Assembly: GCA_900321255.1 (NCBI GenBank)
Contig: ONVK01000005.1
Span: 41-64,040, forward strand
DNA length: 64,000 nucleotides
Source: an uncultured Lentisphaerota bacterium
GTDB taxonomy: Bacteria; Verrucomicrobiota; Kiritimatiellia; RFP12; UBA1067
Reading direction: 5' to 3'
The notes under the pieces were generated by a model. It saw only the letters and a program-made list of their open reading frames with translations. It did no database searches and was not told the DNA's origin. The position numbers and the translations under genes were made by a program. Below, in pieces: positions 3,448 through 60,235 of the stretch (within the stretch, counting starts at the first letter, position 1; every line of letters starts with the position of its first letter).

Positions 3448-4418
<971 letters not shown>

Positions 4419-6678: not shown

Positions 6679-6686
6679 GTGCGGAC

Positions 6687-11532: not shown

Positions 11533-11763
11533 TTATTCGACGACGATCTGGTAGAAGCACGTCGGCTCGTTGGGGTCGCGCGCAATCGTGAAGAGGAGCT
11601 CGCCCGCAGTCGCGACAGGATTTTCCATGGGCACGACCTGCGCGTCCTTCAGCCCTTCGAGCGTCGTCGACTTCTTGTAGCCGTAGACATGACCGACAAT
11701 GGCATTGTCGATTGTTATCTTGATTCCGTCGCTCCCGTTGTCGAACCCGGAGATCGAGGGCTT
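11533..11763 (-). other. Shared C-terminal domain, copy 1 (ends CFYQIVVE)
   Basis: ...GHVYGYKKSTTLEGLKDAQVVPMENPVATAGELLFTIARDPNEPTCFYQIVVE* aligns with the termini at 16616-16864 and 32630-32878. Confidence 0.75.
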
Positions 11764-13334: not shown

Positions 13335-13350
13335 CTACTCACATGGGTAA
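13335..13350 (-). promoter_or_regulatory. Palindromic operator (degenerate copy) abutting a -35 element, upstream of 11533-13296
   Basis: The minus strand reads TTACCCATGTGAGTAG followed immediately by TTGCTTGACG. There is one mismatch to TACCCAnnTGGGTA. The -10 is less clear (AAAATA). Confidence 0.5.
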
Positions 13351-16615: not shown

Positions 16616-16864
16616 TCACTCCACGACTATCTGGTAGAAGCCACTCGGCTCGTTCTCCGCTTTCGGAATCTCGAGCGTCAGCACACCGTCCGCCGACGCG
16701 GGATTTTCGAAATACACGACGGGCGCGTCCTTGAGCCCTGCGAGGGTTACGGACTTCCTGTAGCCGTACCGATGACCCGCCGCGGCGTTGCCGATAGTGA
16801 TGGACACCTTGTCGGACGACACGGCGAACGGAACCTCAACCCCTTCGCCTCCGATCACCGGCGC
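16616..16864 (-). other. Shared C-terminal domain, copy 2 (ends GFYQIVVE)
   Basis: APVIGGEGVEVPFAVSSDKVSITIGNAAAGHRYGYRKSVTLAGLKDAPVVYFENPASADGVLTLEIPKAENEPSGFYQIVVE*. It is also similar at nucleotide level to 32630-32878. Confidence 0.8.
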
Positions 16865-23686: not shown

Positions 23687-23717
23687 GGCAGAAATCTCAG
23701 TTTGATTTTCTGCCTGT

Positions 23718-23762
23718 ATTGTACCTATTCTATCGTCCAAGCTCAATTACCCAGCTGGGTAT
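23718..23762 (-). promoter_or_regulatory. Operator + promoter of giant gene A
   Basis: The minus strand reads TATACCCAGCTGGGTAA-TTGAGC-17 nt-TACAAT. TACCCAGCTGGGTA (23748-23761) is a perfect 14-bp palindrome. Confidence 0.65.
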
Positions 23763-29054: not shown

Positions 29055-29099
29055 ATTATAACAACATGCCAAATCTGGCTCAACTACCCACCTGGGTAG
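29055..29099 (-). promoter_or_regulatory. Operator + promoter of the PATR-protein operon
   Basis: The minus strand reads CTACCCAGGTGGGTAG-TTGAGC-17 nt-TATAAT. The palindrome lies at 29084-29099. Confidence 0.65.
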
Positions 29100-32629: not shown

Positions 32630-32878
32630 TTATTCCACTACGATCTGGTAGAAGCAGCTCGGCTCGTTCGCGGCCTTCGGAATCTCGAGCGTCAGGATAC
32701 CGTCTGCCGCAGCGGGATTCGCGAAGTACACGACCGTCGCATCCTTGAGGCCGGCGAGCGTCGTCGACTTCCTGTAGCCGTAGGTGTGCCCTGACGCGGC
32801 GTTGCTGATCGTGATCGACACCTTGTCGGATCCGACTACGATCGGACTTGCAACCCCTTCACCGCCGATCACTGGCGC
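32630..32878 (-). other. Shared C-terminal domain, copy 3 (ends CFYQIVVE)
   Basis: APVIGGEGVASPIVVGSDKVSITISNAASGHTYGYRKSTTLAGLKDATVVYFANPAAADGILTLEIPKAANEPSCFYQIVVE*. Confidence 0.8.
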
Positions 32879-35800: not shown

Positions 35801-38800
35801 GCCGTCGAACGTTCCTTCCGCAAACGCGCTCACCGTCTTGTCCTTGCTGTTGGAATAGCGCTCGGACGTGTAGAAGATCGCGCGACCGTGAGGCGGGACA
35901 AGGCGCGACGGGAAGTTGCCGTAGCCCGCGGGATCGGTCTTCTTGCCGCGGTTCACGCGGATGAAGCGGTAGTCGGCGAGATCGGCCCACTTGTCGGACG
36001 TGTTCTCGACTTCGACCCAGCCAGACTCGAGTCCGTTGACGTCCATCCCTTCCATGCCGTTCAGCGTCCGCGCGTCCGTGGGCTTGGGCAGTATCTCGCT
36101 GATCCTGAGGACGCACCCCTCCGCCATATTGCCCTCGGGATCGACATAGGGCGACTCCCCTTCAAGCTCGCGCACCTGCACGGCGTTGAGCGCGCGCCAA
36201 GCGGCCGCGCCCGAATATTTTATGACAACACTCTCGGAGTTGGCAATCGCCTCGAAAACATAGACAAGCGAGGCGCCATACTTGTTGTCATTGCGCATGG
36301 CCATCGCTTCGAGATCGCCGGCGCTTATCAGCGCATCGCTCCACTGGTTGTGCGCGAAGAACTGCGCGAGATAGCGCTTCCCGATCGTCAAGCCCTTAAG
36401 CGTTACCGTCAGCGTGCTCGTCGAGTTGGCCCACTCCCACGAGTTATTCAGCATCGTGCCGAAATCGCCTGCGACACCCTCGCTGCCCGAGTTGCCGTCC
36501 GTCTGCGCCAGATCCGGCTGCACGGTCGTATCGGCCGTGTTGAGGTCGGCATCCGCGGCGAAGGCAATTCCGTTGACCGTCACCGACTGGACGGCGTAGG
36601 CGTAGAGAAGCTTGCCGTCCGTGCTGAAAAAGCTCCCGTTGGCCGTCGCAGCCGCGCCGGTCCAGCCCGCATCGACGGAACCGCCGCCACCACCGCCACT
36701 CGTCGTCTGCACGGTCGGATAGTCGGCGTCGACGAACGTCTTGTTGCCCGAGAGGGTGAATACGACCGGATTGCCGCCCGTGATTTCGTAACCCGAGGCC
36801 GGGGCAAACGTCACCGTCACCTGCGTGTTCGAGACGATAGAGTAGTTTCCGCCGACCGCCGTCACCGCGACGCCGTTTGTCGTCACCGACTGGAGCTGAA
36901 GCCCCGTCTTCTCTGGAATCGTCAGCATGCACACAGGCGTCGTCGGGTCGACAGGATCGATCGGATCTTCGCCACCACCGCCGCCGCCCTCGCCGAGGTC
37001 GCGGACCTGGAGGGCGGCGACGTAGCGCGCGGCGCCGGATCCGCCCATCTTGAACGTGACTACTTGCGACGACGCTTCCGCCGTGAACGAACCGTACACC
37101 GTCGCGCCGGACGAGCCGTTCCCGTTCTGGGTGTTGACGGCGGGCAGGTCGCCGATCGTGATGTAGGCGTTTCCATACGAGTTGCGGGCCAGGATCTGCA
37201 AAAGATACGCATGGCCGGCCGTCAATCCCGAAAGAGTCAGATGGATCTCGCCCATGCCTGTGTCCACGCCGAAGTTCCACGCCGTGCCAAGGAGCGAACT
37301 GCTACCGGCATTCGCGTCCGCATTGACGAAGGCCGGATCGAAAGAGATGCTCGCGGAAGACAGGTCGGCGCCCGCCTGGAACGTCACGCCGCCCAGGGTC
37401 CGGTCCGTCGAGGCCCCGCGATAGGCATAGAGAAGCGTTCCGGCCGTCTGGAGCATCGTTTCGTCCGACGCGCTCAGCGTTTCGACGGTCCAGCCCTCCG
37501 CGACGATTTCGCCGCCGCCGCCCGACGTGCTGACGACGAACGAGGCGGTCTTCGTGGCCGTCTTGCCCTTGTCGGTCGTGATCGTGACTTCGCAGGTGTA
37601 GGAACCGTCGGCGAGATCGGCGATCTGGAACGAAGCCGAAGTACCGGTCTGGTTCGAGAGCGCCGCCACCGCGGCCCCGCCGTTCAAAGTGTAGGATACC
37701 GCATAGGATGTCGCGGCAACGCCTTCGTCGTCCGTGCCCAGTTTGACGCCGGAAACCGAGACCGTCGCGTTCGAGCCGCTGACGCTGGAATCCGCCGACG
37801 TAATCGACGGCGCGATGACGATCACTCCGCCGCCTTCGCCGAGGTTTCGCACCTGGACGGCGTTGACCGGGCGATCGCCGTTCGAGCCGGAAAAGAGAAG
37901 CTCGACATCCTGCGTCTCGTCCGAAGCCGTGAAGATACCGGTCAAGAGAGCACCGTACTTTCCGCCCGCCTCGTCAGAGCCGTGGACGTGCTGCGCTTCG
38001 CAGCCATTGGCAGAGACAAGCATGCTGTTGCTCCAGGCCGTGTGCGAGAGGATCTGGACAAGATACCGCTCACCCGGCGTCAGGTTCTTCAGCGTCAGCG
38101 TCACTGTCTTGGTGTCCGTCGAGGAATCGGTCCACGTCCAGCCATTCCCGAGGATTAGTCCGTAACCTGTATCTGAAACACCTTCGTTCATGAGGCTGCC
38201 GTCAAAGCCGGTAGGCGCCGGCGTGAAGGCGATGCTATGTGTGGATGCGAGTGGAAGCGCCCGCGTGAACGCGACGCCGTTGACGGTCTGCCCCTGCGTC
38301 GCATAGGCGTAGACGAGCGTGCCCTCCGTGCTGAACTTCGCGCCGGCGGCGTCCATCGGTTCGGACGTCCAGCCGACCGGCATCGGCGGCGGCTCGCCAA
38401 TCCTGAAGTTGACGGACTTCGCCGCGGACGTCTTGTTCTTGTCGGTCGTTATCGTCACCGCGCAGGAATAGACCCCGTCGGCGAGATCGGCGATGTCGAA
38501 CGAAGCAGTCGAAGCGCTTTGGCCCTCGAGCGCAGCCACGTCAGACGCATTGGTCAGGGAGTAGAAAACCGAATAAGAGGTCGCCGCAACGCCTCCGTTG
38601 TCGGTTCCCATCTCTATGCCCGAAAGCGAGATCGTCGCCGTCGTGCCGTTCGTCGAGACGGAAACCGACCCGATCGACGGCGCAATGACCGGCGCCGGCG
38701 GCTCGCCGATCCGGAAGGAGACGGACTTCGCCGCGGATGTCTTGTTCTTGTCGGTCGTAATCGTCACCGCGCAGGTGTATTCGCCGTACGCGAGACCGGA

Positions 38801-40681
38801 GATCGTGAACTGCGCGGACGCACCGGTCTGGCCCGAAAGCGCAGCCACGGACGCCGCGTTGTTGAGCGAGTAGGAGACGGAATAGGAATTTGCGCTCTCA
38901 CCGGCATCGTCCGTCCCCAGCACGATGCCCGAGAGAAAAACCGTCGCCGCCGTTTCGTTCGTCGTGGCGGTGACCGAGCCAACCTTCGGCTGGACGACGA
39001 TCGGCACGCCGCTCGCGCCGAGGTCGCGCACCTGGATGGCGTTGATGCCGTAGTTTCCGTCGGACGTGATGGTGAACGTCTTTGTTGCCTCGGTCGCCGT
39101 GAGGGCACCTGTAAGAACACCGCCGCAGGACCAGCCGTCGCCGTAGACCTTGATGAAATTCGGATCCCAGTACGACTCCTTGATCCAGACATGGGCCTTG
39201 CTGTCGCTGTTGTAGTTGCGGTAGCCGAATATCTGGACGAGATAGACGTGACCAGGCGTGAGGTTCTTGAGTGTCACCGTCTTGTCGCCCTGATTCGCCC
39301 ACCAGCAACGGTTCAGGAGGTCATAGTAAGAGCCAGAGATGCTGCTCGGAGCCGACGCGCCGGAGGTCTGGCTGTACGGCCAGGAAATGTCGCCCGAGAT
39401 GTTCGCGTTGTTGTTTCCGGCAGCTGCGAACGCAACGCCGTTGACCGTGCAGGCCGAGGGGGCATACGCATACTTGAGCGTGCCGTCCGTGCGGATGGCG
39501 CTGTCGTCGGTTGGAAGCGGGCTCGCGTACCACGGCTCGGTCATCTTGAAGTCGAGCAGAGTCACGAGCTCCTTGTTGTCGGCCGTCGTGACGGTCACCT
39601 TGCAGGTATGGTCGCCAAGGGCGACGTTCGGGATCACAAACGAAGCCCGGGTGCCCGTCTGGCCGGAAAGCGCGCGCGTCTTCGCCCCGCCGTCGAGCTC
39701 GTAGTCGATCGAATAGGTCGTCACGGCGTTCGCGTTCGCGTCCCTTCCGAGGGAAATGCCGAAGACCGTGATCGTCGCAGAGCCCGCGCCGTCCGCGTTC
39801 GGGGCGGCCTTGGCGTAGCCGATGGAAGGATCCGCCGTCTGCGGCTGTCCGGCGGGAACCGCGAGATACTTGTGCATCGCGTTCGAGATGGCGGGACGCC
39901 AGAAATCGGAATAGGTGAAGAACTCCGGATGGAGGCAGAGTCCCACGGCATCGTATCCGCCGTGGCCGCCCTCGCGGTAGCATGTCTTGTCGGGCATCGA
40001 ATTCTGCTGGAGATACTGGCTGCGGAGGTCCACCCAGAACACGCGCTTGTTGTCGACGAACTGGAGGATGTAGTCGTTGACCGCTTCGCTCATCTCCGTC
40101 ACTTCGGCCGCCTCGAAGTACTTGCTATCGAAGCTGTAGGGGAGAATCGGCATCAGGAGGATCTTCGCGTTCGGATGTTTCGTCGCCATCTCACACAGCA
40201 TGAGACGGATCGACTCGGCGACATCCTCTGCGCGATCGGCATGCTCGTTGTGGTCGATGCACTTCTGGTGGCCGTTGTTGATGCCGACCATCAACGTGAA
40301 GTACTTCGTGGTATAGCCGTCAAGCGCACCGTTCCGAAGACGCCACAGGAGGTTCTGGACGCGATCGCTGCCGATGCCCATGTTGAACGCCGCGGCGTAG
40401 TTGATGGGATTCCCGTCGAGGGCCAGACTCGGGTTGTTCCAGAAATCGGTGATGGAGTCGCCGAACAGGACCACGTCGAAGTCCTTGCCCTGGCTGCCGC
40501 TGATGTCAGCGCTGAAGTGGTTCCTGTGGTAGTCGTCCGTGCGCTCCTTCGGCGTACACGGCTCAGAACTGTGATCAGATCCCGGCACCTGGGTGCCGAT
40601 CACGATCGGATCGCCGAACGCAACGAGCGAAGCGGCGGCGAGGACTGATGCTGCGACTTTTTTCAATGTGTTTGTTTTCAT
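32630..40681 (-). CDS. Giant secreted mosaic protein B (2683 aa): SGNH esterase, 4 Ig-like modules, 4 malectin-like CBM modules, LTD-CotH-LTD-LTD block, shared C-terminal domain
   Basis: Signal peptide MKTNTLKKVAASVLAAASLVAFG. The SGNH domain has an intact GDSITDFW...GINN. The first lamin-tail-like domain is CVLRISEILPKP...WVEVENTS (around 36115-35750). The CotH-like core is FTKKGHGLRF...LISEFADPSYMRQ...NGEFYQLAFNSERF...YGYKNVG (around 35080-33800). Two further LTD-like segments lie around 33660-33100. The protein ends CFYQIVVE. Confidence 0.85.
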   Translation of the reverse strand: MKTNTLKKVAASVLAAASLVAFGDPIVIGTQVPGSDHSSEPCTPKERTDDYHRNHFSADISGSQGKDFDVVLFGDSITDFWNNPSLALDGNPINYAAAFNMGIGSDRVQNLLWRLRNGALDGYTTKYFTLMVGINNGHQKCIDHNEHADRAEDVAESIRLMLCEMATKHPNAKILLMPILPYSFDSKYFEAAEVTEMSEAVNDYILQFVDNKRVFWVDLRSQYLQQNSMPDKTCYREGGHGGYDAVGLCLHPEFFTYSDFWRPAISNAMHKYLAVPAGQPQTADPSIGYAKAAPNADGAGSATITVFGISLGRDANANAVTTYSIDYELDGGAKTRALSGQTGTRASFVIPNVALGDHTCKVTVTTADNKELVTLLDFKMTEPWYASPLPTDDSAIRTDGTLKYAYAPSACTVNGVAFAAAGNNNANISGDISWPYSQTSGASAPSSISGSYYDLLNRCWWANQGDKTVTLKNLTPGHVYLVQIFGYRNYNSDSKAHVWIKESYWDPNFIKVYGDGWSCGGVLTGALTATEATKTFTITSDGNYGINAIQVRDLGASGVPIVVQPKVGSVTATTNETAATVFLSGIVLGTDDAGESANSYSVSYSLNNAASVAALSGQTGASAQFTISGLAYGEYTCAVTITTDKNKTSAAKSVSFRIGEPPAPVIAPSIGSVSVSTNGTTATISLSGIEMGTDNGGVAATSYSVFYSLTNASDVAALEGQSASTASFDIADLADGVYSCAVTITTDKNKTSAAKSVNFRIGEPPPMPVGWTSEPMDAAGAKFSTEGTLVYAYATQGQTVNGVAFTRALPLASTHSIAFTPAPTGFDGSLMNEGVSDTGYGLILGNGWTWTDSSTDTKTVTLTLKNLTPGERYLVQILSHTAWSNSMLVSANGCEAQHVHGSDEAGGKYGALLTGIFTASDETQDVELLFSGSNGDRPVNAVQVRNLGEGGGVIVIAPSITSADSSVSGSNATVSVSGVKLGTDDEGVAATSYAVSYTLNGGAAVAALSNQTGTSASFQIADLADGSYTCEVTITTDKGKTATKTASFVVSTSGGGGEIVAEGWTVETLSASDETMLQTAGTLLYAYRGASTDRTLGGVTFQAGADLSSASISFDPAFVNADANAGSSSLLGTAWNFGVDTGMGEIHLTLSGLTAGHAYLLQILARNSYGNAYITIGDLPAVNTQNGNGSSGATVYGSFTAEASSQVVTFKMGGSGAARYVAALQVRDLGEGGGGGGEDPIDPVDPTTPVCMLTIPEKTGLQLQSVTTNGVAVTAVGGNYSIVSNTQVTVTFAPASGYEITGGNPVVFTLSGNKTFVDADYPTVQTTSGGGGGGSVDAGWTGAAATANGSFFSTDGKLLYAYAVQSVTVNGIAFAADADLNTADTTVQPDLAQTDGNSGSEGVAGDFGTMLNNSWEWANSTSTLTVTLKGLTIGKRYLAQFFAHNQWSDALISAGDLEAMAMRNDNKYGASLVYVFEAIANSESVVIKYSGAAAWRALNAVQVRELEGESPYVDPEGNMAEGCVLRISEILPKPTDARTLNGMEGMDVNGLESGWVEVENTSDKWADLADYRFIRVNRGKKTDPAGYGNFPSRLVPPHGRAIFYTSERYSNSKDKTVSAFAEGTFDGKPMIFENYGDILVWGDKVNPKKSPYVRLYYAPVSNASNIVSVVDTVVIPSDLPEGWSIIVGDAADGEGTRRWMCPTPTRGTANTSTAGLVRIGPNVGPLYEKPGQAKTTYASEFAAPVPPAVPGEDYSVTLPINGVMNPDGTFTPRAADQIQSIKFVYRKDLDDATLVTNEVNLATKTTDANWGDQYTATIPSSYFPAAGHLMQWKVLITDGEGVEWTSPSFNNKDDGYEWYGTIVEPGELNSATLPTWHMFASGNHLMQMDVDADKQNLSLVPHNARVAIYDSSTSNYYDYVRIDLRGNTSAGFTKKGHGLRFAKSHPMTMTDAVTGEAVEEIRKTSLISEFADPSYMRQMIAFWLWRKMGNLVPFDFPVRCNLNGEFYQLAFNSERFTDELIEDVYGLDKFGYGYKNVGTLRSGSGTTAGGIEKKTPDDEDESNITVLQNELRSKITAAQQVSSSPDGGSTGLDNAALTKFVVEKFDLPAWLNYLASARITQEMDDVWANVCAYYDNPDMLQGARGTGTWMPLGYDFNLSFGQYYRDNGVGGNGLFATNDWFKSHPFYGGSRVRCYSSSAMSTTINYGNDGFEAVWQSAKFRRLYLRRLRTLMDQELKEPGTPESEVPFMAKMREMAGLMRADAASDAAKWPNNGTDSNIDVWSSSSRPASMDAGIQDIWDNYVVPRREHLYVTHSVTNTAKTVGYGSRLNAGIPEAQSPIETLAPNITADLSGLADGVVVISNGNNEVVDMSGWVLKTAVEWTLPAGTVCDAQDAIYVVADRRAYVATHADALTDQVIVGNATFSDTAILQVFAADGTTQVLMTAPDSGDPDQANLRFHTIYGSTLNGKGDSGEFIVITNVSSGVVNLEGVEVSCGKAGGTPKCKVVLGDVDLPGFASIRLDQADYAAAGWEKITNGSIAMKIADKTGATVQIGELHFGLCDKRTDEGGYALQATRFDNETPLADSTDDWTAVFVEAAAPDAPVIGGEGVASPIVVGSDKVSITISNAASGHTYGYRKSTTLAGLKDATVVYFANPAAADGILTLEIPKAANEPSCFYQIVVE
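36160..37495 (-). repeat. Dispersed cassette block in gene B: CBM 'Y' - bridge - CBM 'X' (order permuted relative to gene A)
   Basis: Y (36989-37495) matches A 17954-18460. The bridge (around 36700-36985) matches A around 18490-18780. X (36160-36668) matches A 18788-19305. Confidence 0.8.
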
Positions 40682-40710: not shown

Positions 40711-40756
40711 ATTGTATAAATTCCTTCCCTTGTGCGACAACTACCCTACTGGGTAA
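40711..40756 (-). promoter_or_regulatory. Operator + promoter of giant gene B
   Basis: The minus strand reads TTTACCCAGTAGGGTAG-TTGTCG-18 nt-TACAAT. The palindrome has one mismatch. Confidence 0.6.
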
Positions 40757-42336: not shown

Positions 42337-43833
42337 TCAGCGAAGACTGATCTTGAAACCAGCAATCGCATGGAACTCATAGCAGCCGATGTCTGGCAGC
42401 GCATCATCACTTACAAGCCCCCTTTTCAGGCAACGCTTGTGGCCGGCGAGATCGCTGGCCGAATTCATCCAGTCGGCCTTGACTCCGGCATCGATCATGA
42501 CAGACGAGCGTTTGAGCGTCCAGTCGCCGGCTGCAGCATCCTTGAACCCAGGGCCCTTCTGCGCCGCGAGCGCCGTGAGGCGCGAAGATTCGCCCGTCGC
42601 GTCAGCCGCGAGGACCGCCGCGACATCTGCGTTGTCAGTGCCGCCTTCTACGACAGTGGTGCCGATCTTGATAAGATCCTGGAGCGGAGTGGTGGGATGC
42701 CAGTAGATGCCAGGGACGCCCTTGAATTTATTGCCATAGGGCCATTCGGTCTTTTCGATGTTGCCCCAGAACACGCAGTTGGTGATGGCAAAGTTCAATG
42801 ACTGCACGTTGTCGCAGACAAGGCCGCCGACATTGCGGACAAACGTGCAGTTCACAATCGGAGGCATTGCGTCCATCCTGAACGGATACTTGTTGTCGAT
42901 GAAAAGACAGCTTGTGATTCTGCTGAAGCTCTTGTCGCCCGAAGCGTCCAGGCGATAGATGCTGGCAAGCGTCGATGTCACGGTCGACTCGTTGTTGGAT
43001 ATTACGCAACGGTCGAGGATGACTTTTCTGTGGAACAGAACGTCATCCTGATTGTGGCCGACGTTGTTCGCGATAAGGCAATCCACCAAACGCGAGCACC
43101 CCTGCTGCTCCCGCTGTTCCTTGGACCCGACAAGACCGCGCTTCGTCTGTGTGTGGTTGCGGAAAATGCAGTTCGTCACCGTAGAGTAGCTCGTGACGTC
43201 AATCGCCGCGTGATACTGATTCTTCGAAACGTCCGAGCAGTAGCAAGCGTCAAAGACCGAGCCCTCGACCCAAAGCGCGCCGAAGATAGCGCCGCCGCCG
43301 CCTTCCTCTCCAACTGTCGCAATCCCGCAACGAAGGAAGGTGCAGCCGCTGACGATGCCGTAGTTCTCCCGCGGTTCAAAGGACGTGTAGCTGTTCTGCC
43401 CGGCATAGATCGCCCCGCCGTACTTCGCCGAACAGTCGATGAAATCGCAGTCCTTGATCATCGCGGTCTGCGAAACGCTCGAGGAGCTGAAGCTGATCGC
43501 CCCGCCGTTGCCGGCATAATACGCGTTCCTGAACGTGATCCCCTCAACCTTGAAGTTGCTCCCGCTTACATAGAGGATGCGGAACTGCGAACCTCCATCG
43601 ATTATTGCGCTGGCCTTGCCGTTCGCGGAACGAAGCGTCACGTTCGCCGCCGAAACCGGAAGTTCCCCCCTGATGAGGCTGTACTCGCCTGCCGCAAGCG
43701 TGATAACATCTCCGGGATCCGCATCGTTAAGGGCTGCACGGAGATCATCAACCGTCGAGACGGTGGAACTGGCGGCAACGGCGGAAGCCGCAAACAGAGC
43801 GGCGGAAACAGCAGGAATGATGGATATTTTCAT
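42337..43833 (-). CDS. Secreted right-handed beta-helix (choice-of-anchor-Q-like) protein, paralog of the N-terminal part of 11533-13296
   Basis: 498 aa with a signal peptide. It has the VSTVDDLRAALNDADPGDVITLAAGEY entry motif, repeated NC/beta-helix rungs and DIGCYE near the C-terminus. No shared C-terminal domain is present. Confidence 0.7.
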   Translation of the reverse strand: MKISIIPAVSAALFAASAVAASSTVSTVDDLRAALNDADPGDVITLAAGEYSLIRGELPVSAANVTLRSANGKASAIIDGGSQFRILYVSGSNFKVEGITFRNAYYAGNGGAISFSSSSVSQTAMIKDCDFIDCSAKYGGAIYAGQNSYTSFEPRENYGIVSGCTFLRCGIATVGEEGGGGAIFGALWVEGSVFDACYCSDVSKNQYHAAIDVTSYSTVTNCIFRNHTQTKRGLVGSKEQREQQGCSRLVDCLIANNVGHNQDDVLFHRKVILDRCVISNNESTVTSTLASIYRLDASGDKSFSRITSCLFIDNKYPFRMDAMPPIVNCTFVRNVGGLVCDNVQSLNFAITNCVFWGNIEKTEWPYGNKFKGVPGIYWHPTTPLQDLIKIGTTVVEGGTDNADVAAVLAADATGESSRLTALAAQKGPGFKDAAAGDWTLKRSSVMIDAGVKADWMNSASDLAGHKRCLKRGLVSDDALPDIGCYEFHAIAGFKISLR

Positions 43834-43867: not shown

Positions 43868-43911
43868 ATTGTATCCATTCCGGCAAGACAAGACAACTAC
43901 CCAGTTGGGTG
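43868..43911 (-). promoter_or_regulatory. Operator + promoter of the beta-helix / protein C operon
   Basis: The minus strand reads AACACCCAACTGGGTAG-TTGTCT-17 nt-TACAAT. The operator starts immediately after the stop codon of the upstream gene. Confidence 0.6.
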
Positions 43912-46900
43912 TTATTTTACAATGCGGTAGATGTGCCGCGAAAAGCCGTCGAAGGAATCGCCGAAGATGCCGTTCTTCGCCTGAAGCGAGCGGTTCTCGT
44001 ACATGACCTCGACCTTCGCGTCCGCCTGGATCTCCGGCGGAAGCCGAAAGCCGACGAGCTTGTTGGGATGCGGGTTGACGTTGGCGGTGTAGATGCGCCA
44101 CTCGTCGCCGTGCCTGCGCGTGAGGCAGCGGATGTAGTTCTCCGTCTCGCTCGAGATCGCGCCGCCGCAGAGCTCGTCCGAGCAGAGGAAGTCGACGTTG
44201 TCGAGAATCTCGCGGTTGACGTCCACAAGCGCGTCGTAGCAGCAGCGCGAAGTCGGCATGTTGACGAACCAGCTGAGTCCCGACGCGCCGGCCGCGATCG
44301 AGCCCCAGCACTGCGCAATCTGCTCCTTGTAGGACGGGATGCGCGGATGCAGCGAGTTCTCGCTCTCCATGAAGTACCAGCAGGGCTTGCCTGGCGCGAT
44401 GGAGCGGAGGACGTCGACCTTTGAGACGACCATGTCGAGCGTCGTGCCGTCGCAGGTGAGGTAGTAGTCGACCATCAGGATGTCCGTCGGCAGCCCCGCG
44501 AAGCGCCCCGAGATGCCCATCCAGCAGTTGTTCATCTGTACGGGGTTGTAGGGGAAGAGCTTCTTCGTGCGCTCCATGAACGCCCTGCACTCGTCCGCCT
44601 TGCGGTATTCCGGCTCGTCGAGGACAAGCCAGTTGATGACGTTCTCGCTGTCGAGCATCCTGTACATCTTCTCGCGGGACCAGTCCGTCGCCGAGTTGTC
44701 CTCCCACCTCCTGATCTCGCCGACGTCGTCGAGGGTCTGTCCCTCGCCCGTCCAGACCGTGAACTTAAGGCCCTTCTTCGCCGCGTAGGCGAGCGTCTTC
44801 TGGTTCATCTCGATGTCGCGGACGTTCAGGTTGTTCTGGAGGTTAAGGTACTTGAACCCCGCGTCGCATATGATGTCGACCTGCTTCGACGTGCCGTCCT
44901 CCTGCGGCGCGTTCTCGCGTCCGATGAGGCACGGCGAGCTCATGAACACCTTCTCCCCGTCGTGGACGAGCGTGCGCGACCACTGGTTAATCTGCGTCGC
45001 GCCCTTTTTGAACGGAAGCTTGCGCACCTCGCTTTTCCACTCCTTCCCGAGCGCCTTTACCGTGACGGCGTTTGTCCCGTTCGCCATCTTCGAAATGTCG
45101 ACCGACACCTCCTCGAAGCCTCCGTTCGCGTCCCACACGCGGAAGCCCGCCGTCTTCTCGTTCATGTAGAAGTCGTAGTGCCCGAGGACGAGCCCCTCCG
45201 CCGGGACCGTGTAGCCGCAGAGCGCGTTCTCCGCCGCGGTGTAGGGGGTCTTCCGCTCGGGCCTCGCGTGGGGAGTGGGCTTCCCGAGCGTGAAGTTCGC
45301 CGCGTCGCCGGATTTCGGCTTGTACTCAGTCGCGTATGTCTTCGCGCTGTCGAACCCTCCCTCCGGCGCGTCGACCATCTCGAGCTGGAGGTCGTCAAGC
45401 CAGATCGACGCCTCGGTCGTGCGCTGGTGGAGATCCGGCACGTCGAACCAGACGGGGCTGAAGATTCCTGGGGATGGCATGTTCGTCGTCGTTATCTCGT
45501 AGCGCGTCCACTCCGTCTTAAGGTCCACGATCTTCGCATCCTTCGACAGCTTCAGCTTGAACTTGACGCCGGGTTCGGACGCCTTGGCCCACACGGAGAG
45601 GACCGCGCTCCTGCCCTTCTGGGTCGGGGTGTTCCAGGTGAAGAAGTCGAAGCTGCGGACGAACGGCCCGATGTTGAGCCGGAGCGACTGCTTGCCGGAG
45701 TGCCGCTCCTTGCGGTCGACCATAAAGCACCTAAGGTACTTCTCCTTGTAGTCCTCGACAGACACCTTGTCCATCGCGCAGAAGTTGCGGTTGCAGTAGT
45801 GCGGCGGCACCCCGTCGCTGTCGTATTCGAAGCCGGAGTTCGCGATGAGGTTCGGACTGTCGTCGCCCTGCAGCGCGTATATCGTGACGCGGCGAACCTC
45901 GAAAGGACACTGGAAGTTGTCGATGACGAGCGGATTCGACCTCGCCACTCCGTCGAAGCCGACCTTCTTCTTCGGCGTCGGTGCGGTGAAGTAGTTTGCC
46001 TGGACGCCGTTGATGAGGAACGTGTAGCCCATCATCTTGTCGCCGATCCTGCGGCGTTCGAAGCGGACCGTCACCGGCTCGCCCTCCTTGAAGTTTGCGA
46101 TCCACGGATAGCAGCTGCGCGTTGCCTGGCCTTCCGCCGGCGCGTAGAGACTCACGCCGTATCCGTCGCTCCTGACGCCGTAGTTGCCGTAGTCGCAGCC
46201 CATAGACGCCCAGTGGTAGTCGCCGTCCTTCGGATCCTTGATCTTGCTCCACTCCGGATAGCACACGAAATCGGCCTCGACCGCGCACTCGTCGGGAAGC
46301 TCGCCCTTCCACTGGATGCCGTCGCCCGTGTTGCCGCTCGGCACGCGCACCGCGCCGTCCTTCACCTCGATCTCCTTCTGCGCGTGCCCGCGGAAGTCCC
46401 ACCGCTCCGCGAAGACCTTGGGGTTCGTGAAGTCGTCCTCGAAAACCGGCACCGAGAAGTCGATCCCCTCCTTCCCCTTGACCTTGGCCTTCGCCTTGTC
46501 CTTCTTCTCGGCCTTCGGGCCGGCCGTCAGCGGGACATCCGTGGCGCTCGCGTAGAACTTCTTCGCGACCTTCTCGTAGAGCCCCGCGACTCCGCCCTTC
46601 ACCACGGGCACGAACTCGGCGACCTGCTTGCCGTCCCTGTAGAACGACGCGCCGTAGAGCGACATGTCGTAGCAGGCATATGACTTGGGCGTCCCGTCCG
46701 CGCACGTCATGCCGAAGAACGAGACCGGCACCTTTCCGGTCGCCGTGCGCTCGCCTTCGAGCTTCATGCGGAAACTTCCCCACGAGACGTTCCGTCCGTC
46801 GTAGACGATAGCGATGCGCGAGCCGATTACTGCGTCGTTGACCTCCTGGAGTCCGCAGTGGATCCACCTGTCCCGGCTCTTGCGCCCGAGGCTCACGAAC

Positions 46901-47217
46901 GTCTGGTACGCCTGCGCCTCGTGTCCGCCGAGGGCCAGGTTGTAGAGATTGCGGAACCCTTCGGAATCCTCGGCGTCCTCCTGTCCGAAGAACGCCGTCG
47001 TCTGCTTCGCTTGGTCGAACTTTCCGCCGAATATCTGGTTGAACGGACCCTCGAACATCAGTTCGATCCTGAACGTGAGCCCGCTCTCCGGAAGCAAGTC
47101 GGTCTTGACGACGCTGCCGTGGGAGGATTTCACATACTCGACTTCGTAGTCGTACGGAGCCGCGGTCACGACGGTCATCGAAGCGGCGAACAGGGCAAAT
47201 GCTATTTGTGGTTTCAT
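43912..47217 (-). CDS. Secreted multidomain putative glycoside hydrolase, paralog of 8707-11472, with extra N-terminal lectin/DUF1080-like modules
   Basis: 1101 aa, starting MKPQIAFALFAASMTVVTAAP. NLIANSGFEYDSDGVPPHY...HSGKQSLRL is CBM4_9-like. The C-terminal catalytic-like domain with LDEPEY is collinear with 8707-11472. The tracked 1663-aa ORF extends artefactually, antisense through the kinase gene. Confidence 0.65.
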   Translation of the reverse strand: MKPQIAFALFAASMTVVTAAPYDYEVEYVKSSHGSVVKTDLLPESGLTFRIELMFEGPFNQIFGGKFDQAKQTTAFFGQEDAEDSEGFRNLYNLALGGHEAQAYQTFVSLGRKSRDRWIHCGLQEVNDAVIGSRIAIVYDGRNVSWGSFRMKLEGERTATGKVPVSFFGMTCADGTPKSYACYDMSLYGASFYRDGKQVAEFVPVVKGGVAGLYEKVAKKFYASATDVPLTAGPKAEKKDKAKAKVKGKEGIDFSVPVFEDDFTNPKVFAERWDFRGHAQKEIEVKDGAVRVPSGNTGDGIQWKGELPDECAVEADFVCYPEWSKIKDPKDGDYHWASMGCDYGNYGVRSDGYGVSLYAPAEGQATRSCYPWIANFKEGEPVTVRFERRRIGDKMMGYTFLINGVQANYFTAPTPKKKVGFDGVARSNPLVIDNFQCPFEVRRVTIYALQGDDSPNLIANSGFEYDSDGVPPHYCNRNFCAMDKVSVEDYKEKYLRCFMVDRKERHSGKQSLRLNIGPFVRSFDFFTWNTPTQKGRSAVLSVWAKASEPGVKFKLKLSKDAKIVDLKTEWTRYEITTTNMPSPGIFSPVWFDVPDLHQRTTEASIWLDDLQLEMVDAPEGGFDSAKTYATEYKPKSGDAANFTLGKPTPHARPERKTPYTAAENALCGYTVPAEGLVLGHYDFYMNEKTAGFRVWDANGGFEEVSVDISKMANGTNAVTVKALGKEWKSEVRKLPFKKGATQINQWSRTLVHDGEKVFMSSPCLIGRENAPQEDGTSKQVDIICDAGFKYLNLQNNLNVRDIEMNQKTLAYAAKKGLKFTVWTGEGQTLDDVGEIRRWEDNSATDWSREKMYRMLDSENVINWLVLDEPEYRKADECRAFMERTKKLFPYNPVQMNNCWMGISGRFAGLPTDILMVDYYLTCDGTTLDMVVSKVDVLRSIAPGKPCWYFMESENSLHPRIPSYKEQIAQCWGSIAAGASGLSWFVNMPTSRCCYDALVDVNREILDNVDFLCSDELCGGAISSETENYIRCLTRRHGDEWRIYTANVNPHPNKLVGFRLPPEIQADAKVEVMYENRSLQAKNGIFGDSFDGFSRHIYRIVK

Positions 47218-47224
47218 GTCTCTA

Positions 47225-47269
47225 ATTATAAATGAACGGTAACTTCCCGTCAAATACCCGACTGGGTAT
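47225..47269 (-). promoter_or_regulatory. Operator + promoter of 43912-47217, in the divergent region shared with the histidine kinase
   Basis: The minus strand reads CATACCCAGTCGGGTAT-TTGACG-17 nt-TATAAT. Only 7 nt separate the -10 from the ATG, so a leaderless transcript is predicted. Confidence 0.6.
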
Positions 47270-47288
47270 GGGGAAAGCAATTTCCCGA

Positions 47289-47317
47289 TTGCCGAATTTC
47301 GCCAAATTCTGTAAAAT
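47289..47317 (+). promoter_or_regulatory. Sigma70-like promoter of the histidine kinase / response regulator operon
   Basis: TTGCCG-17 nt-TAAAAT, with 9 nt to the ATG at 47327. The -35 lies 20 bp from the palindrome at 47254-47269. Confidence 0.45.
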
Positions 47318-47326
47318 ATACGGTGA

Positions 47327-49099
47327 ATGCTGGGATGTATCTCCATTTTGCTACTGTCCGCCACGCTTGTTGACGCAAGGCAGGTCGCCTCTGGCGACTT
47401 CATCGGGCAGCGCGTCTCCATCCGCGGCGTGGTCTCCGCGGCGGTACGCGACGACATAGACGACGGCTTCAACTGGGTTCTGCTAAAAACGCCCGAGGGG
47501 ACCGTCTGCGCGTCAACCGACAACAGGGTCCACTCGCTGGAGGAGCTCCTCCCCCTTCTCGACGCGGATGTCGAGTTGACCGGCACCGTACAGCGCTTCA
47601 CCCACTGGCGCAAGTTCCTCGGCTGCCAGATGCTTTTCGACAATGTCGCAGAAGGCGACAGCATCAAGGTCATAACGCCCGCTTCCGAAGACCCGTTTTC
47701 CGCGCAGCCCCTGACGAACGCCTCGTGCCCACACCGCCAGACGACGACAGGCACCGTGGTCGCCATGACCGGAGAATGCTTCTTCCTGCGCCATGACGAG
47801 GGGCTCCTCCGCGTGCGTCCCGTCGATCCCGACGACGTCCCGCACCTCGGCGGGCTCGTTACTGTCAGCGGCTTCATCGAGCAGAACCAGTTCATTCCGC
47901 TGATGACCGGCGCGCTCTGGCGCACCGAGCCGGCAAAGCCCGCTCGCCCCGAATCGGCTACGGACATCACCGCGGACGACCTCTTCAGGACCGACCCGCG
48001 CTCGCACTCGGGCGGCAGCTTCCACCGGTACGTCAACATGGACATCAGCGGGAAGACGGTCCGCCTCGCCGGGCGCGTCGAATACGCCGCGCGCGAGGCG
48101 CGCGGACCGGCGGGCTTCCGCATCGACTGCAGCGGCGAATCGGTTTTCGTCGACCTCTCCGGCTTCGCGCCCGAGACCGTCTCCGCGCCGAGACAAGGCG
48201 CCGTAGTTTCTGTCACAGGCCTCTGCCTCGCCGACTTCGACACGAGCGGCAGCGCCATATTCCCTCGATTTCTCGGTCTCACCATCATTCCGCGCACACC
48301 GGAAGACCTGCAGATAATCCGTCGCGCCCCCTTCTGGACGATCGCGCGGCTTGCCTTGATGCTCGCGCTCGCCGTTCTCGTGGCAGTCGGCTTCGCCGTG
48401 TGGTCAGCGGCGCTGAAGGTAGTCTCGACGCGGCGCGGCAGGGAACTCGCGCGCGAACAGATTCGCGGAGCGCGCGCGGAGCTGAAGGTCGAGGAGCGGA
48501 CCCGGCTTGCGGTCGAGCTGCACGACTCAATCTCCCAGGTGCTTACCGGCGTGGCCCTCCAGATCGACGCCGCGTCCGGAGCGGACGGAAAAGGCGCCAA
48601 GAAGTTCCTCTCGACCGCGCGCAACATGCTCGCGTCCTGCCGCGAGGAGCTTAACGGGTGCCTCTGGGATCTCCGCAGCCGCACCTTCGAGGAGAAGGAC
48701 ATGACGGAGGCCGTGCAGCGCACGCTCGCCCCGCATGTCGGCTCGGCGAAGCTCGCGGTGCGCTTCAACGTGCCGCGCGAAATGATCTCGGAAGCGACTG
48801 CGCACGCCGTCCTGAGAATCGTCCGGGAGCTCGGCACGAACGCCGTCAAGCACGGGCACGCGAAGAACATAAAGATCGCCGGCGAATTCCACAGCGACAC
48901 CATATCGTTCTCGGTGCTCGACGACGGATGCGGCTTCGATCCCGCCGAAGCGCCGGGACCGGCCCAGGGCCACTTCGGGCTTCAGGGCGTCCGCGAACGC
49001 CTCAACGCCTTCAACGGCACGATACGCTGCGACAGCGAGCCTGGCTGCGGAGCGAAGTTCACGGTCGTTCTGCACACCTCGCCATCGGAGGAGAAATGA
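47327..49099 (+). CDS. NarX/DegS-class sensor histidine kinase (HisKA_3 + HATPase_c) with a large periplasmic domain
   Basis: 590 aa with a signal/TM segment and a second TM (LALMLALAVLVAVGFAVWSAAL). The H-box is RLAVELHDSISQVL, followed by N and G boxes (RELGTNAVKHG, DDGCGFD, GLQGVRERL). The roughly 330-aa periplasmic part looks like three beta-barrel (OB-like) repeats. Confidence 0.88.
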   Translation: MLGCISILLLSATLVDARQVASGDFIGQRVSIRGVVSAAVRDDIDDGFNWVLLKTPEGTVCASTDNRVHSLEELLPLLDADVELTGTVQRFTHWRKFLGCQMLFDNVAEGDSIKVITPASEDPFSAQPLTNASCPHRQTTTGTVVAMTGECFFLRHDEGLLRVRPVDPDDVPHLGGLVTVSGFIEQNQFIPLMTGALWRTEPAKPARPESATDITADDLFRTDPRSHSGGSFHRYVNMDISGKTVRLAGRVEYAAREARGPAGFRIDCSGESVFVDLSGFAPETVSAPRQGAVVSVTGLCLADFDTSGSAIFPRFLGLTIIPRTPEDLQIIRRAPFWTIARLALMLALAVLVAVGFAVWSAALKVVSTRRGRELAREQIRGARAELKVEERTRLAVELHDSISQVLTGVALQIDAASGADGKGAKKFLSTARNMLASCREELNGCLWDLRSRTFEEKDMTEAVQRTLAPHVGSAKLAVRFNVPREMISEATAHAVLRIVRELGTNAVKHGHAKNIKIAGEFHSDTISFSVLDDGCGFDPAEAPGPAQGHFGLQGVRERLNAFNGTIRCDSEPGCGAKFTVVLHTSPSEEK

Positions 49100-49728
49100 A
49101 AAAACCGGAAAAGAAGACAAAGGTACTCCTCGCAGACGACCATCTCGTCGTACGGATGGGACTTTCGGCCATCATCTCGCTGGAGAAGGACATGACCGTC
49201 GTCGCGGAGGCGGAGAACGGCGAAGACGCCGTGCGTCTCGCCGCCGAGAAGAAACCGGACGTGGTGGTCATGGATCTCATGATGCCAAAGCTCGACGGCG
49301 CGAAGGCGACGGCGGAGATTCTCGCCGCCAACCCGGAGGCGAAGGTGATAATCCTCACGACGTTCGGCGGCTCCATCGACGTGAAGCGCGCACTTGACGC
49401 GGGCGCACGCAGCGCGCTCATCAAGGCGACGTCACAGCGCGATCTCATCGCGGCGATCCGCCGCACGGCCGCCGGGGAGTCGGTCATCTGCTCCGAAATC
49501 AGCAACACGCTCGAGTCGGACGCCGACTCCGTCGACCTTTCGGAACGCCAGATCGAGATTCTCTCCTATGTCGCGAAAGGCCTCAACAACCGCGAAATCG
49601 CCGAAGTGATGCATGTCGGGCGCGACTGCATCAAGGCCCATCTCAAGACTATATTCGCGAAGCTCGGCGTAGCCTCGCGCTCCGAGGCCGCCGCACTCGC
49701 CGTCAACCGCAGCATGGTCAAGGTCTGA
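49096..49728 (+). CDS. NarL/FixJ-family response regulator (REC + LuxR-type HTH)
   Basis: 210 aa: VLLADDHLVVRMGL...VVVMDLMMPKLDG...LTTF (REC) and LSERQIEILSYVAKGLNNREIAEVMHVGRDCIKAHLKTIFAKLGV (GerE/LuxR HTH). It has an ATGA overlap with the kinase stop. Confidence 0.92.
   Translation: MKKPEKKTKVLLADDHLVVRMGLSAIISLEKDMTVVAEAENGEDAVRLAAEKKPDVVVMDLMMPKLDGAKATAEILAANPEAKVIILTTFGGSIDVKRALDAGARSALIKATSQRDLIAAIRRTAAGESVICSEISNTLESDADSVDLSERQIEILSYVAKGLNNREIAEVMHVGRDCIKAHLKTIFAKLGVASRSEAAALAVNRSMVKV

Positions 49729-57492: not shown

Positions 57493-60235
<2,743 letters not shown>

Follow-up and report, generated by a model that had tools for sequence, protein, structure and literature searches.

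A two-component system with a predicted triple-OB sensor is the probable regulator of a glycan-degradation island in an uncultured Kiritimatiellia bacterium

Kiritimatiellia are abundant in the rumen and gut, where they degrade complex glycans, and most of them are uncultured. HisKA_3 kinases near glycoside hydrolases have been noted in one isolate of this group (PMC10880615), and our literature search for studies of Kiritimatiellia regulators returned nothing relevant beyond that remark. We asked what controls a 36-kb glycan-degradation island (~11.5–47.2 kb) in a stretch of 64,000 nucleotides from an uncultured Kiritimatiellia bacterium of the rumen (contig ONVK01000005.1 of assembly GCA_900321255.1, positions 41 to 64,040; hereafter, the window). 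A two-component system (TCS) is the only regulator found in this island. From sequence comparisons, we consider this TCS to be the probable locus-specific regulator of the island, its response regulator activating six promoters via the palindrome TACCCAnnTGGGTA.

Island genes with a Pfam match encode beta-helix proteins, GH27/NPCBM and GH36-like alpha-galactosidases, GDSL esterases, and phytase-like, CotH/LTD and beta-lactamase-like proteins, while four proteins of the island match no Pfam family. The protein encoded divergently from the TCS had no match in Pfam, NCBIfam or PDB sequence searches, and its earlier label, hydrolase, is putative. The TCS consists of a sensor histidine kinase (HK) and a NarL/FixJ-type response regulator (RR); the RR start (ATG) and the HK stop codon overlap in ATGA. 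A preliminary description of this DNA held that a HisKA_3 kinase and a REC-LuxR regulator are its sole plus-strand genes, and Pfam, the GC pattern of the open reading frames (ORFs) and the strands of the three tRNAs, all minus, bear this out for the credible genes of the window. The remaining long plus-strand ORFs are high in GC1 and low in GC3, the pattern of antisense shadows; the one exception, at 57515–58177 (+), was assigned as a shadow on account of its overlap with the shifted 3′ part of the minus-strand gene leuS. The −10 of the predicted TCS promoter (9 of 12 consensus matches in a consensus scan) ends 9 nt before the HK start codon, so that the predicted mRNA would be leaderless or nearly so. 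The predicted promoter of the divergent gene begins 1 nt downstream of the palindrome, with a −10 ending 7 nt before the ATG (leaderless, predicted). Coordinates are given in Table 1.

Table 1 Features of the TCS, its candidate target promoters and the palindrome copies, in positions of the window
Feature	Position	Strand	Details
Divergent gene	43912-47217	-	1101 aa
Divergent-gene promoter	47225-47253	-	TTGACG, 17 nt, TATAAT; 11/12 consensus matches
Palindrome TACCCGACTGGGTA, proposed RR-dimer site	47255-47268	.	16-bp dyad with flanks, 47254-47269
TCS operon promoter, predicted sigma-70-type	47289-47317	+	TTGCCG (47289-47294), 17 nt, TAAAAT (47312-47317)
Sensor histidine kinase (HK)	47327-49099	+	590 aa; Pfam
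Periplasmic sensor domain	47378-48337	+	HK residues 18-337, ~320 aa
Cytoplasmic transmitter	48494-49075	+	HisKA_3 residues 390-452 (His399); HATPase_c 494-583
Response regulator (RR), NarL/FixJ-type	49096-49728	+	210 aa; Pfam
Motif copy, CACCCAACTGGGTA in gene orientation	43898-43911	.	Upstream of beta-helix gene 42337-43833
Motif copy	40742-40755	.	Upstream of gene 32630-40681, 2683-aa CotH/GDSL/LTD protein
Motif copy	29085-29098	.	Upstream of gene 26956-29019
Motif copy, perfect 7-0-7 TACCCAGCTGGGTA	23748-23761	.	Upstream of GDSL/phytase-like giant gene, largest ORF in 16616-23746
Motif copy, 1 mismatch	13336-13349	.	Upstream of beta-helix gene 11533-13296

With one mismatch allowed, six copies of TACCCAnnTGGGTA were found in the window versus 0.28 expected, and none of 100 shuffles reached six. 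The copies lie only upstream of the first genes of minus-strand transcription units within the island, and all six are 14-bp dyads (5-4-5 or 6-2-6) placed 1 nt upstream of a predicted −35, in the pattern TTGnnn-17/18-TAnAAT, with their centres at ~−43.5. The −10 hexamers are good and the −35 hexamers weak (e.g., TTGAGC, TTGTCG, and TTGTCT), which fits the expectation for activator-dependent promoters. Given the copy number, arms too short for a stable hairpin, and the fixed promoter register and conservation across diverged orthologous promoters described below, it is extremely unlikely that these palindromes are mere chance occurrences or structural repeats (hairpins, or relics of a mobile repeat).

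We defined an orthologous system by an RR at least 55% identical to that of the window, which yielded 10 distinct loci (210 kb; HK 50–80%, RR 55–95% identical). The motif is present in all 10, which come from related lineages of rumen bacteria and lack phylogenetic independence, with 18 perfect and 26 near-perfect sites. Each of the 26 keeps the same register, a TAC-N8-GTA dyad of 14 bp separated by 1 nt from a weak −35 downstream. The genes neighbouring the system vary from one orthologue locus to another, and conservation of orthologous promoters is limited to the palindrome, the TTG and the −10, with diverged spacers. Perfect sites number 8.6 per 100 kb in the orthologue loci, compared to 0.18 in 66 paralogue loci and 0.49 in 45 loci with other HisKA_3 kinases.

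The invariant position also bears on the direction of control. The palindrome had earlier been called an operator, a term that in its repressor sense does not suit sites found 26 times out of 26 at ~−43.5, just upstream of a weak −35. NarL-family regulators can repress, and a site abutting the −35 could occlude RNA polymerase; an RR that represses from the palindrome and induces upon signal-dependent release is nevertheless very improbable, since the sites are positioned upstream of and not over the −35, as in the NarL activation complex at −43.5, the −35s are uniformly weak next to good −10s, and phosphorylation in the NarL family normally promotes DNA binding instead of relieving it.

Whether this particular RR reads the palindrome is a separate matter. 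A remote transcription factor, either another LuxR-type regulator or a CRP/FNR-type dimer, might bind it while the TCS controls something else. CRP/FNR-type dimers recognise 14-bp 5-4-5 dyads that overlap the −35, and FNR-type sites are close to those seen here in their geometry and in their class II position. Two loci, L125 and L126, have TACCC promoters on contigs of 35–37 kb with no orthologous TCS within the 21–23 kb in view, where the only TCS is paralogous (RR 43–44% identical); in these loci the regulator may be remote, or another RR may use the site. TACCC-type sites also occur beside other regulators, namely one TACCCGCGCGGGTA promoter site in L043 (RR 52% identical, helix DGVKKHLK) and two TACCCAAGTGGGTA sites in L015 (36%-identical RR with another kinase type), and thus the motif is not exclusive to the orthologue group. 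The check for co-occurrence in relatives therefore had a mixed outcome: every orthologue locus carries the motif, and L125 and L126 carry the motif without an orthologous TCS in view. Against a remote factor, which we regard as distinctly unlikely, stand the motif's presence at all orthologue loci, its ~48-fold enrichment over paralogue loci, the lack of a second regulator in the island, and two comparative observations on paralogous systems.

The first of these is that paralogous TCS loci have other palindromes at the same promoter position, in classes that track the recognition helix of the RR. Across 80 family loci we counted 43 perfect 5-4-5 palindromes abutting promoter-like sites, compared to 1.7 ± 0.95 in locally shuffled sequence; the promoter filter is needed for this count, as unfiltered whole-locus counts are swamped by GC-rich coding sequence. 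Class TACCC goes with the helix DC(I/V)K(A/S)HLK, class TACAA with V-N-x-H-L-R (L008, L011, and L012, whose RRs are 59–63% identical mutually), and class CCCTAC-N4-GTAGGG with V(K/R)(E/D)(H/Y) (three times in L051, once in L082, and twice in L123), while further classes are CCCTCA (L007 and L062) and TATAC (L048 and L059). A family-wide rule, TACnn-N4-nnGTA, was dropped because many paralogues use palindromes lacking TAC (CCCTAC, CCCTCA, and TATAC), as was a helix code in which K...K would specify CC and N...R would specify AA, because K-x-H-L-K is also found in loci without TACCC.

The second observation concerns homologues of the divergent gene. In L123, one that is 82% identical lies near a paralogous TCS; this locus has no TACCC site, and CCCTAC palindromes abut the −35 of two neighbouring genes, with no palindrome seen upstream of the divergent-gene homologue itself. 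L124 has a homologue of the gene with neither the TCS nor the motif. The palindrome class of L123 differs from that of the window along with the TCS type. Co-occurrence in orthologues, co-variation of paralogue palindromes with the recognition helix, and the swap in L123 all lend support, at the level of sequence, to the earlier proposal that the RR is cognate to the palindrome.

The preliminary description further suggested that one site, at 47254–47269, could serve both the divergent gene and autoregulation of the TCS. The first half is supported, as the divergent promoter is in the fixed register, with the site centred at ~−43.5; the second half fared worse, the spacing to the TCS promoter not being conserved (its −10 lies 25 to 43 nt from the site). 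In the window the site is centred at ~−62.5 of the TCS promoter, with 20 nt separating the 14-bp core from the TTGCCG, in agreement with the distance given previously. That a single RR dimer activates both the divergent gene (from −43.5) and, as positive autoregulation, the TCS operon (from ~−62.5) would accord with the location of a site between the divergent gene and HK in the window, L005, L120, L121, and L122, with the roughly helical phasing of centres at −44.5, −53.5, and −62.5, with the action of NarL from upstream positions such as −77.5 at ogt, and with the paralogue locus L038 and, nearly, L122, in which one palindrome is symmetric between two divergent promoters. In the orthologues, however, the centres relative to the TCS promoter are −44.5, −49.5, −51.5, and −53.5, of which −49.5 and −51.5 are out of phase, and L001, L002, and L119 lack any site upstream of HK, whereas the 1-nt distance to the −35 of the target never varies. 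The variable or absent site on the TCS side indicates that autoregulatory sharing is not conserved, and we consider such dual use of the site less likely than not.

The RR has the two hallmarks of the NarL/FixJ class, a receiver with an acidic pocket and a phospho-acceptor aspartate (Response_reg, residues 10–122, E = 7.8e-27; D14, D15, and D60) and a C-terminal GerE/LuxR helix-turn-helix (residues 148–202, E = 4.7e-15). Aligned with NarL, D60 corresponds to D59, K180 to K188, A181 to V189, and K184 to K192, so that both base-contacting lysines of NarL (K188 and K192) are kept in the recognition helix (...DCIKAHLKTIF...). Solved relatives in a PDB sequence search were VraR (the best, E about 3e-42), ChrA, NarL, DesR, and ComA. 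Equivalence to NarL or NarP was rejected on NCBIfam scores (131 bits versus a cut-off of 250, and 111 versus 343, respectively).

HK belongs to the HisKA_3 (NarX/DesK/LiaS) kinase class, with matches to HisKA_3 (E = 2.7e-10) and HATPase_c (E = 5.7e-14), an H-box reading ELHDSISQ, and a histidine, H399, that is invariant among 48 homologues. It is organised as an N-terminal hydrophobic segment, a periplasmic domain, one long transmembrane/signalling helix, HisKA_3 and HATPase_c, with no HAMP domain. NCBIfam matches to NarQ, MctS, UhpB, and LiaS are confined to the transmitter (343–588 in the NarX/NarQ scoring) and fall far under the equivalog cut-offs; an identity as NarX (68 bits versus 578) or NarQ (85 versus 553) was rejected, and UhpB and LiaS equivalog identities were likewise rejected on score.

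The periplasmic region extends over residues ~18–337, between the hydrophobic segment and the transmembrane helix starting at 339, and most probably folds, with high confidence from modelling, into three tandem OB folds. Its AF2 model (pLDDT 91.2, pTM 0.87) has three beta modules, predicted as OB folds at approximately residues 29–117, 138–236, and 244–332, and in the full-length model (pLDDT 83.6) an unbroken helix covers residues 339–418. A Foldseek search of the periplasmic model against the PDB gave 90 matches at E ≤ 1e-3, among them the tandem-OB proteins RPA70, CST, and HIN-200 and the OB domains of Asp/Asn-tRNA synthetases, with probability 1.00 (e.g., 1x56, rmsd 3.0 across 109 columns). 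Profile–profile alignment with hhalign related modules 1 and 3 at 92% probability, and pairs 1–2 and 2–3 at 44% only. The preliminary description had envisaged a large periplasmic domain of ~330 aa with three OB-like repeats and had called for a fold prediction and fold-database search; at ~320 aa, and with tandem-OB matches from that search, the domain agrees well with the model it put forward. Pfam gave no family at cut-off for the domain, only a sub-threshold match to DUF5818, and a literature search for OB-fold kinase sensors found nothing relevant. OB folds bind many kinds of ligand. At E ≤ 1e-3 the domain has 860 relatives among cluster representatives; of the 150 listed, almost all are 570–715 aa long.

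Several known systems resemble the one described here in part. NarX/NarL also pairs a HisKA_3 kinase with a REC-LuxR/GerE regulator, and the half-site here, TACCCA(G/T), resembles the NarL consensus TACYYMT; inspection confirmed the fit of TACCCAG at six of seven positions noted before. NarL activates yeaR from a 16-bp site just upstream of the −35 and centred at −43.5, and the sites at all orthologue promoters have this position relative to the predicted −35 and −10 hexamers. The difference in geometry from the 16-bp 7-2-7 site of NarL/NarP, pointed out in the preliminary description, is real (TAC-N8-GTA here, TAC-N10-GTA for NarL), but it is no obstacle, as the RcsB box, TN(G/A)GA-N4-TC(T/C)NA, is a 14-bp pseudopalindrome of 5-4-5 geometry. 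The sensor of NarX is a helical periplasmic domain, unlike the triple-OB sensor without HAMP predicted here, and NarL targets respiration genes, whereas the candidate targets here encode secreted carbohydrate-active enzymes. RcsB, which binds a 14-bp 5-4-5 site as a LuxR-type homodimer, as we propose for the RR, differs in half-site sequence and acts in a phosphorelay with auxiliary partners on a very large, loosely defined regulon; the sites described here are sharply defined and in fixed register to the −35. VraSR and LiaSR share the combination of a HAMP-less HisKA_3 kinase and a NarL-type RR, and VraR is the closest solved regulator by sequence, yet LiaS and VraS are intramembrane-sensing kinases for envelope stress, with hardly any extracellular part, while HK has a 320-aa periplasmic domain and lies in a glycan-degradation locus. 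In its logic the system is like the hybrid two-component systems (HTCS) that govern polysaccharide utilisation loci in Bacteroidetes, with one periplasm-sensing regulator per glycan locus and many paralogues, each dedicated to its locus. An HTCS combines a beta-propeller/Y_Y_Y sensor, HisKA, REC, and AraC output in one polypeptide; the present system has two proteins, an OB-fold sensor, HisKA_3, and LuxR output, and Pfam found no HTCS domains in it.

We propose that the triple-OB domain in the periplasm detects a signal, for which an oligosaccharide set free from the substrate of the island is the likeliest candidate, and that this signal would pass through the single continuous transmembrane/signalling helix of the predicted structure to the HisKA_3 transmitter. 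HK would then phosphorylate D60 of the RR, as expected from its family, and the RR would dimerise on TACCCAnnTGGGTA, 1 nt upstream of the weak −35, from where we infer that it activates the six sigma-70-type promoters in the manner of NarL at yeaR. The site at 47255–47268 would primarily be the activator site of the divergent gene, and positive autoregulation of the TCS from ~−62.5 would be an optional, lineage-specific addition.

More tentatively, we suggest that the triple-OB domain may mark a large, undescribed family of glycan-sensing HKs, spread over Kiritimatiellia and their relatives and comprising at least 400 clusters at 50% identity, in which the helix of each NarL-type RR specifies its own 5-4-5 palindrome at −43.5. 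If these proposals are correct, the palindrome would delimit each glycan-degradation island from sequence alone and link it to its sensor, and a readable regulator-to-promoter code would make the regulon of every glycan locus in these uncultured gut bacteria predictable. OB folds would be a type of extracytoplasmic carbohydrate sensor new to two-component systems, and the triple-OB domain, with ~320 soluble residues, would be a new and experimentally tractable ligand-binding module. The paralogous RRs, with their distinct and equally spaced palindromes, form a natural series for the reading of DNA by LuxR recognition helices and could also supply orthogonal inducible promoters.

A second palindrome, GGGAAAGCAATTTCCC, at 47271–47286, ends 2 nt before the −35 of the TCS promoter. 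Tested for recurrence, it proved to be the sole perfect copy in the window; elsewhere it was found only in the near-identical loci L003 and L004, and the 79% orthologue lacks it.

The preliminary description had named a HisKA_3 sensor kinase and an adjacent REC-LuxR response regulator as the only plus-strand genes in the window (62% G+C), and Pfam searches confirmed the domains of both. The regulator start overlaps the kinase stop codon (ATGA). The claim of uniqueness holds because most other long plus-strand open reading frames (ORFs) resemble antisense shadows in their G+C by codon position, one overlaps the frame-shifted 3′ end of leuS, and the three tRNAs are all encoded on the minus strand. 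The strand bias over positions 1-64000 is extreme, with every credible gene except the two of the two-component system (TCS) on the minus strand, and in most orthologue loci, too, the TCS and its target genes point in opposite directions. The window is 99% identical to RUG12088, a contig of an uncultured rumen genome, and relatives are labelled Kiritimatiellia.

A palindrome of the TACCC type, TACCCNNNNGGGTA, occurs six times in the window at no more than one mismatch, compared with 0.28 copies expected, and none of 100 shuffled sequences reached six. The transcription units concerned lie between 11.5 and 47.2 kb, and in each the palindrome precedes the first gene; read along the minus-strand genes, all six copies are TACCCAnnTGGGTA, 1 nt, TTGnnn, 17 or 18 nt, TAnAAT. 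A consensus scan of the region between the kinase gene and the divergent gene returned two promoters, one of them the TCS promoter proposed in the preliminary description. Assuming transcription starts 7 nt after each predicted -10, the palindrome centre (47261.5) lies at -43.5 relative to the divergent-gene start and at about -62.5 relative to that of the TCS. At the palindrome promoters only TTG is retained of the -35 hexamer, as is typical of activator-dependent promoters, and the earlier label "operator" should probably be replaced by "activator site".

A second perfect palindrome with a 6-4-6 layout, GGGAAAGCAATTTCCC, lies between the TACCC site and the TCS -35, 2 nt from the latter. It has a single perfect copy in the window and is absent from the 79% orthologue; L003 and L004, which are near-identical loci, are the only others that have it. 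It may be fortuitous, or a different regulator may act through it in this species. At many promoters, including both in this intergenic region, the -10 is only 6-9 nt before the ATG and there is no Shine-Dalgarno sequence. The kinase gene has this spacing in every orthologue checked (L001, L002, L119-L122), as do several of the island genes, which suggests that the mRNAs are leaderless; the leaders of other island genes are normal and contain GGAGG-type sites.

Coordinates of features in the window and, where named, in comparison loci
Feature	Position	Strand	Details
Kinase ORF	47327-49099	+	590 aa; HisKA_3, HATPase_c (Pfam)
Regulator ORF	49096-49728	+	210 aa; receiver domain, GerE/LuxR HTH (Pfam)
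TACCC site	47255-47268		14-bp palindrome
Divergent-gene promoter	47253 to 47225	-	TTGACG-17-TATAAT; consensus scan, 11/12 matches
TCS promoter	47289-47317	+	TTGCCG-17-TAAAAT; consensus scan, 9/12 matches
Second palindrome	47271-47286		GGGAAAGCAATTTCCC
Short -10-to-ATG spacing	47225-47217		divergent gene
Short -10-to-ATG spacing	47312-47327		kinase gene
Divergent gene	43912-47217	-	1101 aa
Giant secreted protein	16616-23746		2376 aa; GDSL esterase domains, Ig/Fn3 repeats, alpha/beta hydrolase, phytase-like domain
Giant secreted protein	32630-40681		2683 aa; GDSL esterase domains, Ig/Fn3 repeats, CotH kinase domain, lamin-tail domain
leuS	57493-60235	-	appears damaged
leuS C-terminal part	57493-58020		other frame
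ORF overlapping leuS 3′ end	57515-58177	+	leuS 3′ end frame-shifted
EF-Tu gene	3448-4418	-	broken
EF-Tu N-terminal ORF	3660-4418
EF-Tu final 71 residues	3448-3663		separate ORF
CNNM overlap region	4778-6650	-	two overlapping ORFs
CNNM + CBS + CorC ORF	5419-7458	-	Pfam
CNNM-only ORF	4778-5566	-	Pfam
HipA-type gene and small ORF, L125	13440-14890		Couple_hipA, HipA_C
HipA-type gene and small ORF, L126	16859-18332		Couple_hipA, HipA_C

Among comparison loci retrieved through kinase homology, the motif was concentrated beside TCS orthologues. Ten orthologue loci (kinase 50-80%, regulator 55-95% identical; 210 kb) contained 18 perfect sites and 26 at no more than one mismatch, or 8.6 perfect sites per 100 kb, compared with 1 and 7 (0.18 per 100 kb) in 66 paralogous family loci (547 kb) and 3 and 12 (0.49 per 100 kb) in 45 other HisKA_3 loci (609 kb). 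The 1-nt register to the TTG hexamer was kept in 26/26 orthologue sites. The genes neighbouring the TCS vary widely between these loci (e.g., rhamnosidase, GH43, GH92, GH123-like, and CotH giants), and conservation in orthologous promoters is limited to the palindrome, TTG and the -10, a phylogenetic footprint. The co-occurrence in relatives that had been proposed as a check was thus found, and the regulator-motif link appears well supported by comparative genomics.

An unbiased scan of 80 family loci for perfect 5-4-5 palindromes followed within 0-3 nt by a promoter-like site found 43, versus 1.7 ± 0.95 in locally shuffled sequence, and the palindrome classes track the recognition helix of the regulator. 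TACCC accompanies the helix DC(I/V)K(A/S)HLK in the orthologue group; TACAAATTCTTGTA accompanies V-N-x-H-L-R in L008, L011 and L012, whose regulators are 59-63% identical mutually and at most 55% to others; CCCTAC-N4-GTAGGG accompanies V(K/R)(E/D)(H/Y) in L051 (three sites), L082 and L123 (two sites); and TACAC...GTGTA accompanies DCVKAHLR in L038 and DGVKRHLN in L050. Further classes are CCCTCA...TGAGGG (L007, L062) and TATAC...GTATA (L048, L059). Of the computational arguments that the LuxR-type regulator encoded in the locus would be the reader of the palindrome, this co-variation is the strongest. The TCS is one of a large family with a seemingly readable promoter code.

Paralogue locus L007 also contains at least six short palindromes of the CCC(C/T)TA(A/G)GGG type within 130 bp (about 3980-4110), separate from the ACCCCTCATATGAGGGGT site abutting the -35 at 9572. 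A more distant NarL-type system (regulator about 36% identical, different kinase type) in L013 and L015, from Kiritimatiellae/Lentisphaerae MAGs, has three kinds of promoter-adjacent TAC-N8-GTA sites (TACACTTTGGAGTA, TACTCGGACGAGTA and TACCCAAGTGGGTA); NarL-type regulators of that phylum may commonly use such dyads.

In a reverse test, the loci of divergent-gene homologues (L123-L126) were examined for the TCS and palindromes. In L123, a paralogous TCS (regulator 43% identical) lies near a homologue with 82% identity; TACCC sites are absent from the locus, and CCCTAC palindromes abut the -35 of both neighbouring genes, with none seen upstream of the homologue itself. L124 has a 75% homologue with neither a TCS within 10 kb nor the motif. 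TACCC promoters occur in L125 (two) and L126 (one), where only a paralogous TCS is in view, itself matching CCCTnC-type palindromes also found there. No orthologous kinase was present within the 21-23 kb fetched, and, judging by the lengths of contigs in the kinase-cluster listing, these contigs probably carry none. Either the regulator can act away from its own gene, or a different regulator can read TACCC; TACCC-type sites also occur beside other NarL-type regulators in L043 and L015. The proposal that the TCS is the cognate regulator of the palindrome has good support from comparative genomics, with L125 and L126 the main evidence against it. On these two related contigs, an insertion between the glycan-locus genes and the paralogous TCS comprises a HipA-type kinase gene and a small ORF, which look like a toxin-antitoxin pair.

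The preliminary description had also suggested that one site serves both the divergent gene and TCS autoregulation. The site centre lies about -44.5 from the TCS start in L122, -49.5 in L120, -51.5 in L005 and -53.5 in L121, and no site was found upstream of the kinase in L001, L002 or L119. Shared use seems possible in the window species, and where the arrangement is symmetric, as in L122 and paralogue L038, it is likely, but with site-to-promoter geometry varying among orthologues it is not conserved.

The closest solved relatives of the regulator are VraR, ChrA, NarL and DesR; a NarXL orthologue was ruled out by curated score cut-offs. In an alignment with a NarL sequence numbered consistently with the residues given in PMC10853779, D60 corresponds to D59, K180 to K188, A181 to V189, and K184 to K192; NarL Lys188, Val189 and Lys192 make base-specific contacts (PMC10853779). 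A NarL dimer centred at -43.5, just upstream of the yeaR -35, recruits RNA polymerase via the alpha C-terminal domain (PMC10853779). As first described, the dyad differs in geometry from NarL sites, being 2 bp shorter, despite the similarity of its half-site to the NarL heptamer. RcsB, a NarL-family regulator, binds TN(G/A)GA-N4-TC(T/C)NA (PMC7913699), also a 5-4-5 box, and the geometry of the TCS palindrome therefore has precedent. The TCS is a variation on two-component systems of the NarL type, and its sensor domain is undescribed.

The full-length kinase model (pLDDT 83.6) has three beta modules and a single helix that starts at residue 339, crosses the membrane and reaches the H-box; a HAMP domain is absent. 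Modelled alone (pLDDT 91.2, pTM 0.87), the periplasmic domain matched only OB-fold proteins in Foldseek, many of them tandem-OB, including RPA70, CST, HIN-200 and Asp/Asn-tRNA synthetase anticodon-binding domains. Modules 1 and 3 are homologous (92% probability) and module 2 is more diverged; the model and the fold search that had been called for agree with the three tandem OB-like repeats predicted earlier. The domain has no Pfam family, DUF5818 being sub-threshold only. Among 1.84 billion cluster representatives, 860 proteins were found at E <= 1e-3, and 413 reached E <= 1e-10; of the best 150 of the 860, nearly all have kinase length (570-715 aa), and many matches listed carry an additional N-terminal stretch of about 100 residues. 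Aligned homologues are 29-71% identical in the periplasmic part versus 41-79% over the whole protein, which would fit ligand diversification. Judged purely by genomic setting, the ligand would be a glycan fragment.

The island, flanked by housekeeping genes (rpsB on one side, a SecY-like ORF on the other), encodes by Pfam beta-helix proteins, a GH27 alpha-galactosidase with NPCBM, a GH36-like protein, GDSL esterases, a phytase-like esterase, a beta-lactamase-like protein, and CotH and lamin-tail domains among two giant secreted proteins; glycan-degradation loci do not usually include a CotH kinase domain. Pfam identified no regulator besides the TCS among island genes. The divergent protein matched no family and no PDB entry, and it has only 23 homologue clusters.

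The leuS gene looks damaged. Its 789-aa ORF contains an exact 24-residue tandem duplication and the C-terminal anticodon-binding part is in another frame, probably through assembly error in this metagenome-assembled genome. The EF-Tu gene is broken: its N-terminal ORF appears to lack the segment normally following LLARQVGVP and then goes out of frame, and the final 71 residues are in a separate ORF. The two overlapping ORFs that both match the CNNM transmembrane domain may represent a duplication or another frameshift, and the N-terminal third of the longer one overlaps a 277-aa ORF that lies downstream of rpsB, where tsf would be expected.
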